DNA from: Ostreococcus lucimarinus
Taxonomy: Eukaryota
Assembly (NCBI GenBank): GCA_000092065.1
Contig: CP000581.1
DNA: 64,000 nucleotides
Reading direction: 5' to 3' (one strand)
Part shown: positions 41,032 to 49,056 of the stretch, one piece after another
Numbering within the stretch: position 1 is the first letter of the stretch
How the letters are laid out: each line of letters begins with the position of its first letter
Made by a program: the position numbers and the translations under genes
The notes under the pieces: generated by a model
What the model was told of the DNA's origin: nothing
Databases searched by the model: none
What the model saw: only the letters and a program-made list of their open reading frames with translations

Positions 41032-42327
41032 ATGACGGCGTCGAGAGGCGACAGCGCGATGATGGGCGACGATGAGATGGCGGCGGGAGCGATCGGGGCG
41101 ATGCAAGGGGCGGCGTTCGCGGCGTTTGCGAATCCGGTCGATTTGAGCGCGACCCCGCCGACGCGGGGGTTCGCGGTGGGGAGCGCGCCGGGATTTTATC
41201 CAGGGGTTGGTGGTGCGTTGGCGGGGGCGTCGGGGATCGGACGAGGTGGAAATATGATCGCAGGGACGTCACCGAACTTTTTGGCGGGAACGTCGCCGGG
41301 ATCGCTCGGGTCGTCGCCGTCGTTTTACGGGTCGTCGCCGACGGCGATTCCGCAAGTCGTTCGGCCGAAGGCGCCCATGGACCGCGGGATCGGGTTTCCG
41401 GGATTGTCTTCCTCGCTTCCGGGTAAGCATCACATCGGATCTCCTAATAGTGGATTTAGTGCGTTTAGTCCTCCGATGAACTTGAAGGACTCGCCGCGAG
41501 CGATGGCGCACTTTTCGTCCTCGCCTCCAGTCAAGTCGGGCGGCGTGCACAAGCCGCCGTCGGGCGCGACGAAGGCGAAGAAGATGGAGATCGCCCGAGC
41601 TGCGGTCAACGAGGTGACTGCTGCGGCCGTAGCCGTGTCGTCGATGCCCGGCGCTTCGATGAGCGCGTCGATGCCGCTGAACTCGAGCGGTAAACCGCAA
41701 AAGAGTGTGTACCGAGGGGTTAGACAACGGCCGTGGGGCAAGTACGCAGCCGAAATCAGAGACCCCACGCGCGGGTCAAGGCTTTGGTTGGGTACGTTCG
41801 ATTCTGCCGAAGAAGCGGCTTTGGCGTACGACGCCGCGGCTCGTGCGATCCGCGGCGACGCCGCAGTGACGAACTTTGGCAAAGACGTTCCGATCCCAGC
41901 GTCTGTACGAGCGCAGTTGCCTCCGCTTCCGACGCGTCCGGTGCAAGGCAGAGGCGGGACGCCGCGAGACGACAGCGCGTTGTCCGGGCGCATGTCAAAA
42001 TTGTCGACTTCGAATAAGCCTGCGAAGAACCTTGAAGAAGAGGCCGAGATGTTACTCATGCTTCAAGCCGCGGATAGCGATACGAAGACGAGCACGCCTG
42101 ACAAATCTGATTCGGTGGAGGACCAAGCCACGGGAATGGATCTCGAGGAAGATAACGGGGCGAGTTCGGTGACCGTTGGCTTGACTTTGCGCGCGCAAAA
42201 GTCCAACGCTCCGCCAAGTGCTCCCGCGCCGGCAGCAAGAATTCAGCAGACCGATGCATCTAACGCGATGATTTCGGCGTTGAAGGCTTCGACCGTCAGT
42301 ACGCGTACGCGCCGCGGCGGCGCGTAA
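41032..42327 (+). CDS. AP2/ERF domain transcription factor
   Basis: A single canonical AP2 domain [56 protein letters not shown] is flanked by low-complexity G/S/A-rich regions. ATG at 41032 checked. Confidence 0.85.
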
Positions 42328-42479: not shown

Positions 42480-43940
42480 TTAAATTAACGTCGCGAACGC
42501 GACCAAGGACCCGAAGGCGAGCGCCGCGGCGACGCCGGCGGGCGCGCCGCTCGAACGCGGTTCGTTGTCGCGAGCACTCATATATGCATCGTAGTTTTCG
42601 AGCGTAATATCATTCGGGCATGACGTATCGGCGCACTTTGAAGTTGATAAGCACAGTCCGTAGGTCCCGCAGCAATCGTTCGCCGTGCAAATTGATTCGA
42701 GATACGAAAGCGTCGGCGCGCCGCTCGAGCATTGAAAGTCGCAGTTCGGCACTTGTCGAGTCACCATTTCACCATCAGGGCAACGCAGAACGTCCGGTGG
42801 ACAGTGAGTGAAACCATTTGGGCCCGAGGATGTCTCGACGCTCGGTCCAGGTGCGGGAGCCAAATCATCATCGTCGACGAAGCCGTTATTCGACACGCCA
42901 TCCGTTTCAAGCATCCAGTCGATGAGAGAAGGGCCAAAATCTGCCGTAAAGGTCAGCGCGGTCGCGAGTTCGGTGTTCAAACCCGAAACAAGTCGAAGCT
43001 CGGTGCGACCACCGACGTCGCACTGGCTCGTGTTGCCAAAGTGCACGAGATCAGTATCTGGGTTGTTCGGGAGCAGCTTTTGGCGAGAGACGAGCGCGTC
43101 TGCAGTCGTGACTTTCGCCGACGCATCGCACCCGTTGTGATCGGCCCAGCCAGCCAACGTTTGTTCAACGGAAGGTACAGGTTTACCTTCGAATCGACCG
43201 CCATCGACGGGAATGTTGTCGAGTTCACCATGGATGGCCAAGACGTTCACTGGCGTCTTTGTCGTCGCCGTGAACGCGGCGCAGTTGGATTGCGCGTCCG
43301 CGAAGGTCAGACCAGAGATAGATACGATACCCGAGATTAAATCGGGCTTCTCGCAAGCCATGCGATACGCCATGAACCCACCGTTCTCCCAACCGACGAT
43401 GTAAACCTTGTCCTCGGCGACGTTGTACTGAGACTTCACGGCTCGGATGACTTGCGCGAGATGTTCGACGTCGTCGACGGGTTCCCACGTCTCCGGATCC
43501 CCCGGGCGTAACGAGAAGCGTCCAGCTGCGCAGCACGCGGGTGTTGCAGCCCAAGATCTACATCCGTAGCGAGTGTTCAAAATACCACCAAGTCGAGTGC
43601 ACGATGAGCACCAGAATCGATTTCTCGTCCCTTCGGGAAGTGCGAGGATGAACTCGCGAGAATCCACCTGCTCGGTGAAGCGCAAAATTCGGTTTGTGGA
43701 GTCGCCATCCATGCAGCGCCCGTGGAGAAGAACGATGAGAGGAACATCTGGTGGTACATTTGTCGCGTTATCCTCGCCGGGCACGGAGACGTCGGGGATG
43801 TAGAGCGTGATTGGGTCTCTGTCTTCTCCCGAGGCGTACACGATGTCCACCTCCTGCCTCGCGACGGCGGAGACGCGAGAGGCGCCGAGCAGTAAGATGA
43901 GAAAAACCGAGTAGAAAGCGCTTGAGACTTTGCAAATCAT
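42480..43940 (-). CDS. secreted esterase/PHB-depolymerase-family (alpha/beta hydrolase) homolog with Cys-rich C-terminal region and GPI-anchor-like signal
   Basis: Signal peptide MICKVSSAFYSVFLILLLGASRVSA from the internal ATG 43940. Esterase_phb-like motifs PLIVLLHGRCMDGDS, and VYIVGWENGGFMA where the usual GxSxG Ser is replaced by Glu. The C-terminus has a Ser-rich omega region plus the hydrophobic tail GVAAALAFGSLVAFATLI. Confidence 0.6.
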   Translation of the reverse strand: MICKVSSAFYSVFLILLLGASRVSAVARQEVDIVYASGEDRDPITLYIPDVSVPGEDNATNVPPDVPLIVLLHGRCMDGDSTNRILRFTEQVDSREFILALPEGTRNRFWCSSCTRLGGILNTRYGCRSWAATPACCAAGRFSLRPGDPETWEPVDDVEHLAQVIRAVKSQYNVAEDKVYIVGWENGGFMAYRMACEKPDLISGIVSISGLTFADAQSNCAAFTATTKTPVNVLAIHGELDNIPVDGGRFEGKPVPSVEQTLAGWADHNGCDASAKVTTADALVSRQKLLPNNPDTDLVHFGNTSQCDVGGRTELRLVSGLNTELATALTFTADFGPSLIDWMLETDGVSNNGFVDDDDLAPAPGPSVETSSGPNGFTHCPPDVLRCPDGEMVTRQVPNCDFQCSSGAPTLSYLESICTANDCCGTYGLCLSTSKCADTSCPNDITLENYDAYMSARDNEPRSSGAPAGVAAALAFGSLVAFATLI

Positions 43941-44021: not shown

Positions 44022-44147
44022 CTCGGGCTCGTCGCGCCGCCTCGGGAACGCCGCCTCGATTCGATTCATAACAACACCGACGTGCCTGCCCCTCGGGCTC
44101 GTCGCGCCACCTCGGGAACGCCGCCTCGATTTATAACAACACCGACG
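44022..44147. repeat. tandem duplication, period ~70 bp (copy 1 at 44022..44082, copy 2 at 44092..44147), two mismatches plus a 5-bp indel
   Basis: The direct repeat is CTCGGGCTCGTCGCGCC(G/A)CCTCGGGAACGCCGCCTCGAT(TCGAT)TCATAACAACACCGACG. Copy 2 overlaps the last codons and stop of the LRR gene. Confidence 0.8.
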
Positions 44148-45684
44148 AAGGTTGACACTGCGAGTAATACGCATCAAAGTACACGCAAGAGTTGCCAGGC
44201 GCACAGCACTTGGGTCCGTCGTAAAGTGCGCCGGCGCACTGCTCCCACTGCGCGTTACAGGGCAGGCACTCGGACCTGTCGTCGTCAATTCGAGTGCACG
44301 TTAGACCGCGCTTGCAGCAAGTTGGGCCGTCGAAAGATTTCCCACCACATTTCTGATACGCGTCTGAACATGGCACACACTGCTTCCCACCGAACTCGAA
44401 AGGAACGCTGAGACACGTACCTTCCTCGCAGCACGTTTCTTTCCTTCCGCTGAGTTCCCAGATGGAACAGCCTTCGCCTGGCGCAGCGCATTGACATGAC
44501 CCCAAACCGAGAAGCGTGCCCGCTGTTTCCGGCCAAAGTTGACAAAGTTCCCACGGTTTGTCGCACTCGGCTTCCTTTTGCTCCTTCGTGGCGAATGGTA
44601 AGTCTGGAAGTGCACCGCAAAGCCCAGCGTTGTTTGCCAGGCTAATCATTTTGAGATTCGGCAGAGACGCCTTGGATAGAGTCACCGGACCCGTGAATCG
44701 GCAGCGATCGAGCAGCACGCCCTCGAGCCGCTTTAGCCGAGAAAGTTCGTTGATCGAACCCGTAAGCAAATTTTCGTGCACGTCGAGGAACGTCAAGTTT
44801 CGCGGTAGGAATCGAGGTAAAGTTCCGCTCAAAAAGTTGCCTTCGACGATCAAGGACTCGAGCGCCAGGGCGGAGGACCAGTCGCTCGGTATAAACCCGC
44901 TGATGAAGTTATCGTCCAGATTTAACGTTCGAAGGCGTGGAAGTGTGGCGAGCTCTTGTGGAATGGCGCCGTGGAGTTGGTTCCCGGACACGTCCATGGA
45001 TTCGAGTTCGACGAGATTCCCGACGCTCGCCGGGAGAGCGAGACGATCCGTCTTCAAACCGAGCATATTTCTGTGCAAATTCAACTCTCTGAGCTTGACG
45101 AGATTACCGATTTCTGCGGGAACGCTGCCCGAAAGTTGATTGCCAAAGTGAACCCCCGGAAATCCGTACACTTCGCGCTTGTCGACGGGTACCGACGCGT
45201 CGAATCGTCTCTGTCTCTCTGTGAAGCCGCCGTCCAAATTCAGGACTTCGAGCGACGTCAAAGTCCCGATCGACTTCGGAATCGGTCCCTCGAGCGTGTT
45301 CAAATTCAAATGCAGCTCCACGAGATTCGGCATCGCCAACAAGAACTCCTCGGAAATCGTTCCCTCGAGCGCGTTATCGCTCGCGTCCAACGTCGTCAAC
45401 CGCTCCATCCTCGGCACGCGCGCCGGCAGCCTCCCTCGCAGCCCTCGTCCGCGCAACCGTATCTTCACCACCCTCCCGTTTTCATCGCACGCCACCGTCC
45501 CGTCCCCGATCGCGCACACGTCCCCGATCGCCAGCGCGCGTCCCAGCGCCTCGTCGTCCCTCGCGCTCGCCAGCAGCGTCCTCACCGCCTCCGCGTCGCC
45601 CGCGTCCGTCGCCCGCGTCGCCATCGCTCGCATCGCCGCCATCGCGACGCACGTCGCCGTCCCCGCGCGTCGCTTTCGCCCCAT
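44131..45684 (-). CDS. plant-type leucine-rich-repeat protein with two C-terminal CBM1-like cysteine modules
   Basis: About 12 LRRs of LxxLxLxxNxLxGxIP type. The C-terminal 100 aa holds two modules resembling fungal-type CBM1 ([33 protein letters not shown] and [33 protein letters not shown]). The start was set at the internal ATG 45684 (MGRKRRAG). The N-terminus is poly-Asp/Arg-rich and the signal peptide is uncertain. Confidence 0.65.
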
Positions 45685-45846
45685 CCCGTCGTCGTCGTCG
45701 TCGTCGTCGTCGTCGCGCCTTCGCGTCGCACCGTGTGGTCGACGACAATCGGCGACACAAAACGTCAATCGTCGCGGTCGGGCGGTCGGTCGCCGCGCGC
45801 GCGGTCGAAGGTTCTGGATGTCGACGACGGGTGCGCGGCGCGATTA

Positions 45847-48800
45847 ATGGCGCGCGACGGAACGCGACGCGCGTCGTCGGCGTCGGCGTCGACGTCGACG
45901 ATCGAGATGACCGCGCCCGTCTACCCCGCGTGGTCGAACGCGCCGGCGCGGACGCTGGCGCATCACGACAGCGACGAAACCGTCGGGATCGCGTCGGCGT
46001 CGGTGGACGATCGGCGCGCGCGCGCGGGCGGGCACAACGAGCTCGAGCGCGAGCCGGGGAAGGCGCTGTGGAGACTGGTGCTGGAACAGTTCGATGACGC
46101 GCTGGTGAAGGTGCTGCTGGCGGCGGCGGCGGTGTCGCTGGCGCTGGCGTACGCGGAGGGCGGCGCGGAGGAGGGACTCGCGGCGTACGCGGAGCCGGCG
46201 GTCATCGCGCTGATTTTGGTGCTGAACGCGATCGTCGGGGTGTGGCAGGAGAGCAACGCGGAGCGCGCGCTGGATGCGCTGAAGGAGATGCAGAGCGAAC
46301 ACGCGAAGTGCCTGAGAGACGGTCGATGGAACGGCTCGCTCGAGGCGCGGGAATTGGTGCCGGGGGACGTGGTGGAGCTGAAGACGGGCGATCGAGTGCC
46401 GGCGGATTGTCGAGTGATTCGATTGAAGACGGCGACGGTGCGCGTGGAGCAGGCGTCGTTGACTGGGGAATCCGTGGCGGTGGATAAGCGCGTGGAGAGC
46501 GTGAAGGATGAAGACATCGAGTTGCAAGGGAAGACGTGCATGCTGTTCGCCGGCACGGCGGTGTCCAACGGATGCTGTCTGTGCGTGGTGAACTCGACGG
46601 GTATGTCGACCGAGATCGGGAAGATTCAGTCGCAAATCAAAGAAGCGAGCGAGGAAGAGGAGGATACGCCGCTGAAGCAAAAGCTCGATCGATTCGGTGA
46701 GAGCTTGACGATGATGATTGGCGTCATTTGCCTTCTCGTGTGGTTGATCAACTACAGGCACTTTGTTCAATTTGAGTTCAAGGCTGGGTCAACGATCCCC
46801 AGCGTGGCGTTTGATCTCGTGAAGTGTACGTATTATTTCAAAATCGCCATCGCTCTCGCCGTGGCGGCTATTCCCGAAGGCTTACCGGCGGTAATCACGA
46901 CGTGCTTGGCGCTCGGTACAAGAAAGATGGCGAAGAAGAACGCCATCGTTCGCAAGTTGCCGAGCGTGGAAACTCTTGGTTGCACGAGTGTTATTTGCAG
47001 CGACAAGACGGGTACGTTGACCACGAATCAAATGTCTGCCGTAAAGCTCATCACCGTGCGCGATGAGACTCACTTGACGACATACACCGTCGAAGGGACG
47101 ACGTACAACCCCACCGAGGGTGGCGTCGTCGGCGCGCCGAAAAAGCTTGACGCGAGTTTGCGCGCCATCGCTAAGATTTCTGCTTTGTGCAACGGCGCTC
47201 AGTTGGAGTACAAAAACGATGCGTACAAGTGCGTCGGTGAACCGACGGAAGGTGCGCTCAAAGTTTTGTGCGAGAAGATTGGTTTGGATGACATGCGCGG
47301 CGTCGCCAAGAAGCGCTCCTCCAAACCCGAGCAACACGCACAAATCGTGTGCGACATGATTGAAAGTGCACACGACGTCCGGGCAACTTTAGAATTCGAT
47401 CGTGATCGCAAGTCGATGAGCGTCATCGCGAGTGAAAAGACCGATAGCAAGCGGGGTAGCGCCAACGAACTCCTCGTCAAGGGGGCGCCTGAAGTGTTGC
47501 TTGAACGCTGCGCGTTTGTGCAGATGCCGGACGGCGCGACGGCGCCGCTTTCCGCAACGATGCGAAATGTCATCCTCAACGAACAAGCGACGATGGCTCG
47601 CGACGCGCTGCGATGTCTCGCGTTCGCGAAAAAGGTTTCGCTTGGTGATTTGTCTTCGTACGACGGATCAGAGAAGCACAAGGCGCACAAGGTGCTCAAG
47701 GATCCGTCCGCGTACGCGTCCATCGAATCCGATTTAATCTTCGTTGGCATGACTGGTTTGCGAGATCCCCCGAGACCGGAAGTCGCTGGAGCCATTAAGG
47801 CGTGTCACACTGCCGGTATTCGCGTTATCGTCATCACCGGCGACAACAAGCTTACCGCGGAGGCGATTTGCACCGAAATTGGCGTCTTCAAGTCTTCGGC
47901 GGACGTTAAGGGGAAATCCTTCACCGGTCGTGAATTCGCTGCGATGTCCAAATCTAAGCAACTCAAAGCGCTTCTTGGTGAAGGCGGTCGCGTGTTCAGT
48001 CGCACTGAGCCCAAACACAAGCAAGACATCGTTCGTCTCCTTCGCGATAGCGGCGACGTAGTCGCCATGACGGGCGACGGTGTCAACGACGCGCCGGCGT
48101 TGAAGCTCGCGGATATCGGTATCGCCATGGGTATCGCCGGTACTGAGGTCGCGAAGGAAGCGTCCGACATGGTTCTCGCCGACGACAACTTCAGCACCAT
48201 CGTCGAAGCCGTCTCCGAGGGTAGAAGCATCTACAACAACATGAAGGCGTTCATTCGATACATGATTTCTTCCAATGTCGGCGAAGTGGTGAGCATTTTC
48301 CTTACCGCTGCGCTTGGCATGCCCGAGGGCTTGGTGCCGGTGCAGCTTCTTTGGGTGAATCTCGTCACCGATGGTCCTCCGGCCACGGCGCTCGGTTTCA
48401 ATCCTCCGGACAAAGACATCATGACGAAGCCGCCGAGACGAAAGGACGAAGATCTCTTATCCAACTGGGTCATGTTCAGATACGCCGTCGTCGGTCTTTA
48501 CGTCGGCGTCGCTACCGTGGGCGCGTTCGCGATTTGGTTCACGCGCACTAGTTTCATGGGTATCGACTTGAGCCAAGACGGTCACACGCCCGTGACTTTC
48601 AAGCAGCTGACAAACTGGGGCGAGTGCGCGAGCTGGAAAAATTTCAAGGGAGGCAAATTCACCGCCGGCGGCGTCGCGTACTCTTACACCGGTAAGCACG
48701 CGTGCGATTACTTCGAGGCGGGCAAAGTGAAAGCGTCGACGCTTTCGCTCACTGTTCTTGTCGCGATCGAGATGTTCAATGCGCTCAACGCGCTTTCGGA

Positions 48801-49056
48801 GGACGGATCGTTGGTGACCATGCCGCCGTGGCGCAACCCGTACCTCCTCATCGCCATGCTTGTCTCCTTTGGCTCGCACTTCTTGATCATGTACGTTCCG
48901 TACTTCGCGGAAATTTTCTCCATCGTCCCGCTGGATTTCAACGAATGGATGCTCGTCCTTCTGTGCGCCGCACCGGTGTGCTTGATCGACGAAGTTCTGA
49001 AGGTTTTCGGCCGCGTCTCGGCGCGAAGAGAACTCAAGGCTCGACTCGGGTACTAG
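45847..49056 (+). CDS. ECA: sarco/endoplasmic reticulum-type Ca2+-ATPase (P2A-type, SERCA/ECA)
   Basis: Phosphorylation site [12 protein letters not shown], the KGAPE and DPPR motifs, the hinge [13 protein letters not shown] and 10 TM helices. Upstream codons of ORF 44956.. are antisense to the LRR gene. The first ATG is at 45847; the ATG at 45907 (MTAPVYPAW) aligns better with plant ECA N-termini. Confidence 0.9.

Follow-up and report, generated by a model that had tools for sequence, protein, structure and literature searches.

A probably secreted leucine-rich repeat protein ending in CBM1 modules in the picoalga Ostreococcus lucimarinus

What is the role of a conserved cellulose-type binding module in an alga that has no wall? 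The question is raised by a gene on chromosome 1 of Ostreococcus lucimarinus CCE9901 (minus strand, positions 44131-45684 of the 64,000-nucleotide stretch of contig CP000581.1 analysed here, hereafter the window). Its 517-aa product, for which we use the descriptive name LRR-CBM1, carries plant-type leucine-rich repeats (LRRs) followed by two carbohydrate-binding modules of family 1 (CBM1). The usual description of CBM1 is still that of a cellulose anchor of fungi (and oomycetes); here it is joined to LRRs of the type that serves extracellular perception in land plants. Our analysis identifies the product as a probably secreted LRR protein that is not anchored in a membrane, with its parts in the order weak signal peptide, cysteine-capped solenoid of about 12 LRRs interrupted by a 28-aa insertion, cysteine-rich spacer, and two CBM1 modules.

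The coding sequence (44131..45684, minus strand, as are all parts of the gene given below) is complete and consists of a single exon, with 517 codons translated without interruption and a stop codon at 44131-44133. An earlier note on this DNA, made from the sequence alone, had named a frame-breaking intron between the LRR and cysteine-rich regions as one threat to the domain combination. No such intron exists: the exact 517-aa product is called on at least 68 marine metagenome contigs, Tara Oceans assemblies included, and orthologues are colinear in at least ten lineages.

The two C-terminal modules are recognised as CBM1 by Pfam. The whole protein matches CBM_1 (PF00734) in two stretches (E=1.1e-13), its 51.3 bits lying above the gathering cut-off of 20.6, and each module is also significant when scanned singly, module 1 (44260..44370, aa 439-475) with 39.6 bits (E=4.6e-10) and module 2 (44149..44259, aa 476-512) with 38.1 bits. 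Both contain six cysteines in the pattern C-x6-C-[GA]-G-x7-C-C-x5-C-x9-C, spread over about 36 aa. The four canonical cysteines align with those of Trichoderma reesei Cel7A/CBHI (1cbh), the spacing is compatible with CBM1, and the two additional ones are invariant. We take this extra pair, formed by the N-terminal cysteine and the cysteine beside the second canonical one, to resemble that of the three-disulfide EGI-type CBM1. In a PDB sequence search module 2 matched the CBM1 of a GH10 xylanase (6q8m, E=9e-6), 1cbh (E=2.2e-5) and T. reesei Cel7B/EGI (4bmf, E=4.9e-5), and it shares with the fungal modules 41-47% identity, a length of about 36 aa, the four canonical cysteines and a W/Y...YY..Q face. 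An AlphaFold (AF2) model of the last 177 aa (pLDDT of the modules 71-90) predicts the small wedge-shaped, three-stranded beta fold, which superposes on fungal CBM1 at 0.7-1.5 A. Foldseek aligned 34 columns of the model to 1cbh at 0.7 A (TM 0.88 with the 36-residue target as reference), to the cellobiose dehydrogenase CBM1 4qi4 at 0.8 A over 38 columns, and to 4bmf with TM 0.77. Knottin-like toxins and Dickkopf-type cysteine-rich folds were also among the Foldseek matches, at similarly weak E-values.

The earlier note was thus right in its domain call of plant-type LRRs followed by two CBM1, and the Pfam search that it suggested returns a significant match. It had also read the full CBM1 pattern of cysteines and aromatics in both modules, which holds for the cysteines only: YYSQC is confined to the last module, and the first has DDRSEC in its place. 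This difference falls on the putative binding surface. The cellulose-binding face of the CBHI CBM1 is formed by Y5, Y31, Y32, N29 and Q34. Module 2 has W480, Y506, Y507 and Q509 at the positions of Y5, Y31, Y32 and Q34, with D504 at that of N29, and so presents an intact flat face. In module 1 the face is degenerate; Y443 is kept, and the equivalents of Y31, Y32 and Q34 are D, R and E.

The same asymmetry runs through the family. In ten of ten lineages at 36-67% overall identity the last module retains W, YY and Q, apart from TY for YY in P0010; the penultimate module has YY and Q in none of the eight Ostreococcus-type lineages. In the two most distant relatives, P0010 and P0280 (the latter from contigs of 44% GC), the penultimate face is kept as F/Y-Y/F plus Q, and P0280 has three CBM1 modules with complete triads. 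Judged from these alignments, the ancestral protein probably had at least two working CBM1 modules, of which the Ostreococcus-type lineages retain one under clear constraint. In Ostreococcus module 1 has probably ceased to bind glycans, and it may serve as a spacer.

A further cysteine-rich unit precedes them (module 0, 44371..44496, aa 397-438), with seven cysteines and beta hairpins in the model (pLDDT 61-79). It is not classifiable as CBM1: scanned alone in five Ostreococcus-type lineages it gave no Pfam CBM_1 match and one chance-level p450 match (E=0.052). We also considered it as a third, degenerate CBM1 and rejected this, given the lack of a match in the five lineages and a value of only E=0.11 in the 44%-GC orthologue.

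Ahead of the cysteine-rich modules lies a plant-type LRR solenoid. Pfam returns LRR_4 (E=1.9e-16) together with LRR_1, LRR_8 and LRR_14, and the tandem repeats, starting at aa 72, 96, 121, 145, 198, 227, 251, 275, 297, 320 and 344, follow the 24-residue, plant-specific consensus LxxLxLxxNxLxGxIPxxLxxLxx. A full-length AlphaFold model (mean pLDDT 83.5) shows about 12 strands in this region with pLDDT mostly 85-98, which bears out the roughly 12 plant-type repeats of the earlier note. Repeats 1-4 (45238..45471, aa 72-149) include the LRR_8 match at aa 95-152 and form strands in the model; repeats 5-12 (44599..45153, aa 178-362), of the 24-residue plant-specific type, hold the LRR_4, LRR_1 and LRR_14 matches. 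The best Foldseek neighbours in the PDB are all ectodomains of plant LRR receptors (RGFR1, GSO1, MIK2 and FLS2, E about 1e-14 to 1e-13; also HAESA and PSKR), and the best sequence matches outside the family are plant LRR receptor kinases (LRR-RKs) and receptor-like proteins (RLPs) at 24-46% identity.

Caps and an insertion frame the repeats. Ahead of LRR1 lies a helical region with a two-cysteine N-cap (45472..45606, aa 27-71), in which the model places helices at aa 28-40 and 44-53 (pLDDT 71-95) and C57 and C66 are nearly invariant among orthologues; the family LRRNT_2 (PF08263) gave no Pfam match at E<=10. Between LRR4 and LRR5 a conserved 28-aa insertion (45154..45237, aa 150-177; pLDDT 77-87) is reminiscent in position of the island domains seen in BRI1- and PSKR-type plant receptors. 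Its residues D151, G152, G153, T155, Q158, Y173, G174, P176 and G177 are at least 90% conserved. The signature DGGFT..Q...YG.PG is near-invariant across all orthologues, and the model puts short strands there. The solenoid ends in a C-terminal cap and linker (44497..44598, aa 363-396) of low model confidence (pLDDT 50-73) with the motif CDKP..E.C.LWP, in which C374, D375, K376, E379, C381, L383, W384 and P385 are invariant. A motif DRCRF in LRR11 was considered as the RxR motif with which plant peptide-hormone receptors hold the C-terminus of a peptide, and was discarded: its arginines occupy repeat positions 8 and 10, not positions 3 and 5 of the beta-strand, and the central residue is Cys/Asn.

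The pattern of conservation within the solenoid bears on what it may bind. Mean identity to the reference is 0.72 at concave positions (2, 3, 5, 7 and 8 of LxxLxLxxN, on the solvent-exposed beta-sheet), 0.59 at convex positions and 0.78 in the hydrophobic core. The most constrained repeats are LRR4 and LRR6-10 (0.72-0.94), for example at N202, H204, R205, D231, S233, D257, D258, E281, D301 and H303. A conserved concave face, an apparent single copy and a stable chromosomal position together point to a fixed, probably endogenous ligand and away from a pathogen-driven arms race.

The protein has nothing with which to sit in a membrane. The chain stops five residues beyond module 2, which leaves no membrane anchor, tail or kinase; no transmembrane segment is present (the maximum 19-residue Kyte-Doolittle mean over the 517 aa is 1.1), and the Pfam scan found no kinase family. 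Having no segment of transmembrane strength, it is, over its whole length, an LRR protein that is probably secreted, and neither an ectodomain nor receptor-like; the framing of the earlier note has to be given up in this respect. The candidate signal peptide (45607..45684, aa 1-26) is probable but weak: a basic n-region (RKRR) is followed by an Ala/Met/Val-rich stretch with an Arg inside the hydrophobic core; 10-aa hydropathy peaks at 1.63. At the aligned position the N-termini of orthologues reach 2.5-3.9 and have strong signal-like cores (e.g. LFLFFFFALV, VVVVFVVVCV). The protein contains one N-glycosylation sequon. It is reasonable to infer an extracellular protein that is possibly tethered to polysaccharide.

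The gene occupies one syntenic slot in at least eight Ostreococcus-type lineages and in the 44%-GC relative. All orthologues (P0002-P0010, 36-67% identity) combine LRRs with CBM_1, and the gene appears to be single-copy, with one close cluster per lineage. The order RPAP3-like / SERCA / LRR-CBM1 / esterase / AP2 / flavodoxin-FAD reductase is kept in every sufficiently long locus, and one of the lineages with this order is O. mediterraneus, as its SERCA cluster shows. The slot is also that of P0280 on its 44%-GC contigs, a composition compatible with Bathycoccus. An exhaustive profile search with the 173 C-terminal columns against 1.84 billion representative proteins (E<=0.001) returned 1225 proteins. 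The whole profile was matched only by P0006, P0009 and P0280, and most of the remaining matches are tandem-CBM1 proteins of fungi, chytrids and oomycetes, e.g. AA9-CBM1 arrays. A word-indexed search with the C-terminal 177 aa alone gave 29 candidates and two matches, both fragments of the LRR-CBM1 family, and was uninformative. Two irregularities concern P0003. Its gene call starts at GTG, has no signal peptide and is N-terminally truncated. Its 90%-identity cluster, represented by a 499-aa LRR-CBM1, also holds 477-aa members of the neighbouring esterase named 'polyhydroxybutyrate depolymerase'; the member count of 302 is therefore unreliable, probably owing to read-through or a fused ORF (open reading frame).

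Four further matches of the tail profile (P0299, P0334, P0370 and P0379) also carry LRRs, and they are the starting point of a second family, of about 20 clusters (P0379, P0432-P0449, P0299, P0334 and P0370), all from marine metagenomes. Like the O. lucimarinus protein, its members have a signal peptide, plant-type LRRs with a '...NP.LCG..P' cap and then CBM1. In contrast to it, they have a shorter LRR region, another N-terminal domain and 3-6 more widely spaced CBM1, and their genomic neighbourhood differs; one copy (L016, 6001-7920) lies on a 67%-GC contig of 1.57 Mb between RPN11-like and SGT1-like genes. In the LRR region the profile match between the two families reaches only E about 1e-16 to 1e-18. 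The combination of LRRs with CBM1 thus recurs in the genomes of marine picoalgae and is no isolated case. Some copies of the second family were seen on 61%-GC contigs, and Ostreococcus itself may for this reason carry such a paralogue.

The architecture had been taken to be undescribed, and this does not stand. In their survey of CBM1 outside fungi Jones and Ospina-Giraldo (PLoS One 2011) mention the O. lucimarinus protein ABO94230 with an LRR region and two CBM1 (PMC3160888), so that the combination is re-discovered here. As it stands, LRR-CBM1 is a conserved domain architecture noticed earlier and not a new kind of system. What is added here is that the protein is probably secreted and not receptor-like, its syntenic conservation, the retention of the face in the terminal module only, the conservation of the concave LRR surface, and the second family. 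No other paper in the literature searched ties CBM1 to Ostreococcus substantively. An LRR region with exactly two CBM1 fits the gene at 44131-45684, and fits the second family with its 3-6 modules less well. Among 40 of the 90 cluster members no NCBI-sourced entry appeared that would tie ABO94230 to our gene. In accession number it differs by 330 from the product of the adjacent SERCA gene (ABO93900), which may indicate another locus or a differently modelled product; ABO94230 could be our gene with another gene model, or a paralogue belonging to the second family.

Several known systems resemble parts of this protein. The likeness of module 2 to fungal CBM1 was given above; in contrast to the fungal proteins, the algal modules stand in tandem, have no Ser/Thr-rich linker and are attached to no glycoside hydrolase, lytic polysaccharide monooxygenase (LPMO) or esterase, the host is a green alga, and module 1 has no aromatic face. 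Similar in build are CBM1 proteins without catalytic function from oomycetes (Phytophthora CBEL and CBD) and red algae (the polysaccharide-binding protein of Porphyra purpurea), to which a part in wall structure or adhesion is ascribed (PMC3160888). All of them are secreted, and they carry repeated CBM1 and no catalytic domain. Their partner domains are PAN/Apple or none, whereas the partner in O. lucimarinus is a 12-repeat plant-type LRR solenoid; no PAN family was found in the Pfam scan of LRR-CBM1 at E<=10. Furthermore, oomycetes and red algae have cellulosic or polysaccharide walls, and Ostreococcus has none.

On the LRR side, LRR-CBM1 shares with plant polygalacturonase-inhibiting proteins (PGIPs), RLPs and receptor-like kinases (RLKs) the 24-residue plant-specific consensus and the cysteine-containing caps. 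Unlike RLPs and RLKs it has no transmembrane helix, juxtamembrane region or kinase, and its CBM1 tail is absent from PGIPs. A further parallel is with plant LRX proteins, secreted wall-anchored LRR proteins without transmembrane segment or kinase, whose C-terminal extensin fixes them in the polysaccharide matrix. The LRX anchor is a cross-linked, Ser-Pro-rich extensin, and the candidate anchor of the O. lucimarinus protein is CBM1. Since the 517 aa contain no Pro-rich or SPPPP stretch, the likeness is one of analogy only, and there is no homology beyond the generic LRR. We know of no RALF-type ligand in Mamiellophyceae.

Taken together, these comparisons suggest how the protein might work. At the cell surface or close to it, the terminal CBM1 would dock onto the flat surface of a crystalline glycan of beta-1,4 type (cellulose-, chitin- or mannan-like), and the concave LRR face would bind a conserved, probably endogenous, protein or peptide partner. 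LRR-CBM1 would then be a polysaccharide-tethered LRR adaptor or sensor, a functional analogue of plant LRX proteins with a CBM1 anchor. An intact C-terminal CBM1 combined with neither a catalytic domain nor a membrane anchor is what a tether would look like, and concave positions conserved almost as strongly as the core (0.72 against 0.78), and more than the convex side (0.59), argue for a fixed ligand against an arms race. We regard this model of a tethered, LRX-like adaptor or sensor as a whole as about evenly poised between right and wrong.

A number of observations weigh against it. Ostreococcus belongs to the Mamiellales and is described as naked, without wall or scales, and non-flagellate, Bathycoccus as scaled, and Micromonas as naked and flagellate (PMC3491373). 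The scale-associated role that had been suggested for the protein accordingly does not fit Ostreococcus, although the 44%-GC relative could have one. A conservative screen of sequenced chlorophytes for rosette-type cellulose synthases (CesAs) found only one CslA/C-like gene, speculated to encode a mannan synthase (PMC3091534), so that no obvious self ligand is known for the CBM1. According to a survey of 2026, O. lucimarinus has just one predicted receptor-like kinase (PMC12757656), and a downstream signalling route is hence not evident. Within the protein itself, module 1 is charged where the aromatic face would be, module 2 has Asp at the N29 equivalent and CAG for CGG, and the Arg that breaks the hydrophobic core (hydropathy 1.63) makes for a weak signal peptide in the O. 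lucimarinus allele.

The module may instead bind a foreign glycan. A secreted CBM1 could hold on to diatom chitin fibres, cellulosic thecae, detrital particles or marine snow, while the LRR face binds the surface of the alga itself or a partner cell, with attachment or aggregation as the result. The lack of any known self cellulose or wall in Ostreococcus would be explained in this way, the strong conservation of an intact terminal CBM1 in a protein without membrane anchor agrees with it, and non-catalytic CBM1 proteins of oomycetes have been linked to adhesion to cellulosic substrates (PMC3160888). However, nothing in this analysis or in the literature consulted shows Ostreococcus attaching to particles, and neither the syntenic housekeeping neighbourhood nor the single-copy status is specific to adhesion. 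We consider such an adhesin unlikely.

Alternatively, CBM1-like modules may have been re-used as disulfide-knotted structural or protein-interaction units, forming a stalk or an oligomerisation tail that binds no carbohydrate. The loss of the aromatic face of module 1 (DDDR/E in its place), a module 0 that looks related and is no recognisable CBM1, and the toxin and Dickkopf-type folds found at similarly weak Foldseek E-values would all be in line with this. In sharp contrast, every lineage has W, YY and Q in the last module (with the TY of P0010), which is hard to account for if there is no selection on a glycan-binding face, and the 44%-GC orthologue has complete triads in all three of its modules. 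A purely structural role for the tail is improbable on this evidence.

The tethered adaptor or sensor could also be saved by a glycan that has escaped notice. 'Naked' Ostreococcus and its relatives would in that case expose a thin or stage-specific crystalline beta-1,4-glycan, either made by the lone CslA/C-like synthase or belonging to the wall of an unobserved zygote or cyst stage, and LRR-CBM1 would be its matrix-tethered sensor or adaptor. It would represent an early green-lineage counterpart of the wall-anchored LRR proteins, built independently from a CBM1 anchor. We think the chances of this particular version are rather slim.

Doubtful, too, is a defence protein, either a PGIP-like inhibitor of foreign hydrolases or a decoy or receptor in prasinovirus attachment. 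A secreted plant-type LRR protein without membrane anchor is reminiscent of PGIPs, its structural neighbours are immune and peptide receptors, and prasinoviruses are a major selective pressure in the group. The gene is nevertheless apparently single-copy and part of a conserved block of chromosome 1, not of a variable region, and its concave face is conserved, not hypervariable, typically the opposite of immune LRR loci. Finally, a chimera of the assembly or gene model, or a chance cysteine-rich sequence, can practically be dismissed in view of the continuous ORF, the identical protein on dozens of independent metagenome contigs, colinear orthologues in at least ten lineages and HMM (hidden Markov model) E-values of 1e-9 to 1e-13, the only related oddity being the database artefact in the P0003 cluster that mixes LRR-CBM1 with the neighbouring esterase.

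Purifying selection clearly acts on a CBM1 in a picoalga without wall or scales and without a recognised cellulose synthase. If the terminal module binds a glycan, an as yet unrecognised polysaccharide surface, its own or foreign, must matter to an alga that ranks among the most abundant marine picoeukaryotes, and LRR-CBM1 would be a ready-made probe for such a surface. Such binding would also show that LRR proteins became tethered to polysaccharide more than once in the green lineage.

The surroundings of the gene are compact. The 64-kb window has about 60% GC and is crowded with long ORFs on either strand, and a scan of it for tRNA genes came back empty. Downstream, at 42480..43940 on the minus strand, lies the gene of a secreted alpha/beta-hydrolase of the feruloyl-esterase / PHB-depolymerase type. 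The 486-aa product has a textbook signal peptide MICKVSSAFYSVFLILLLGASRVSA, a cysteine-rich C-terminal region and a hydrophobic C-terminal tail; it matches Pfam Abhydrolase_2 (28.4 bits) and, weakly, Esterase_PHB, and its best PDB matches are the feruloyl esterase 9j07 (8.5e-8) and the PHB-depolymerase-family esterase 8daj. About 190 bp separate the LRR-CBM1 stop from the esterase ATG, or 61 bp with a 529-aa esterase model. An esterase of the wall-polysaccharide type adjoins the CBM1 gene of a wall-less alga, and it does so in every lineage examined. A functional link based on this conserved adjacency was considered and rejected, the whole block of about ten genes being syntenic at all loci, so that the adjacency carries no specific signal. 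The esterase gene is met by a convergent gene for an AP2/ERF-domain transcription factor (41032-42327, plus strand) from the same conserved syntenic block.

On the other side, a SERCA-type Ca-ATPase gene (45907-49056, plus strand; 1049 of 1049 residues identical to XP_001415608.1 / ABO93900.1 of O. lucimarinus CCE9901) is transcribed divergently from LRR-CBM1; this identity assigns the window to chromosome 1 of that strain or an identical one. The intergenic region common to both genes (45685..45906), about 160-220 bp long, holds a (GAC)9 repeat at 45688-45714 that ends 3 bp upstream of the LRR-CBM1 ATG. A longer LRR-CBM1 ORF reaching to 45768 was discarded: it depends on a TTG start, has no upstream ATG, merely translates (GAC)9 and is irrelevant in a eukaryote. 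Four metagenome contigs of the same species have (GAC)8 instead of (GAC)9, and the repeat is absent from other lineages; it is a polymorphic microsatellite in the 5'UTR (untranslated region) or promoter of LRR-CBM1.

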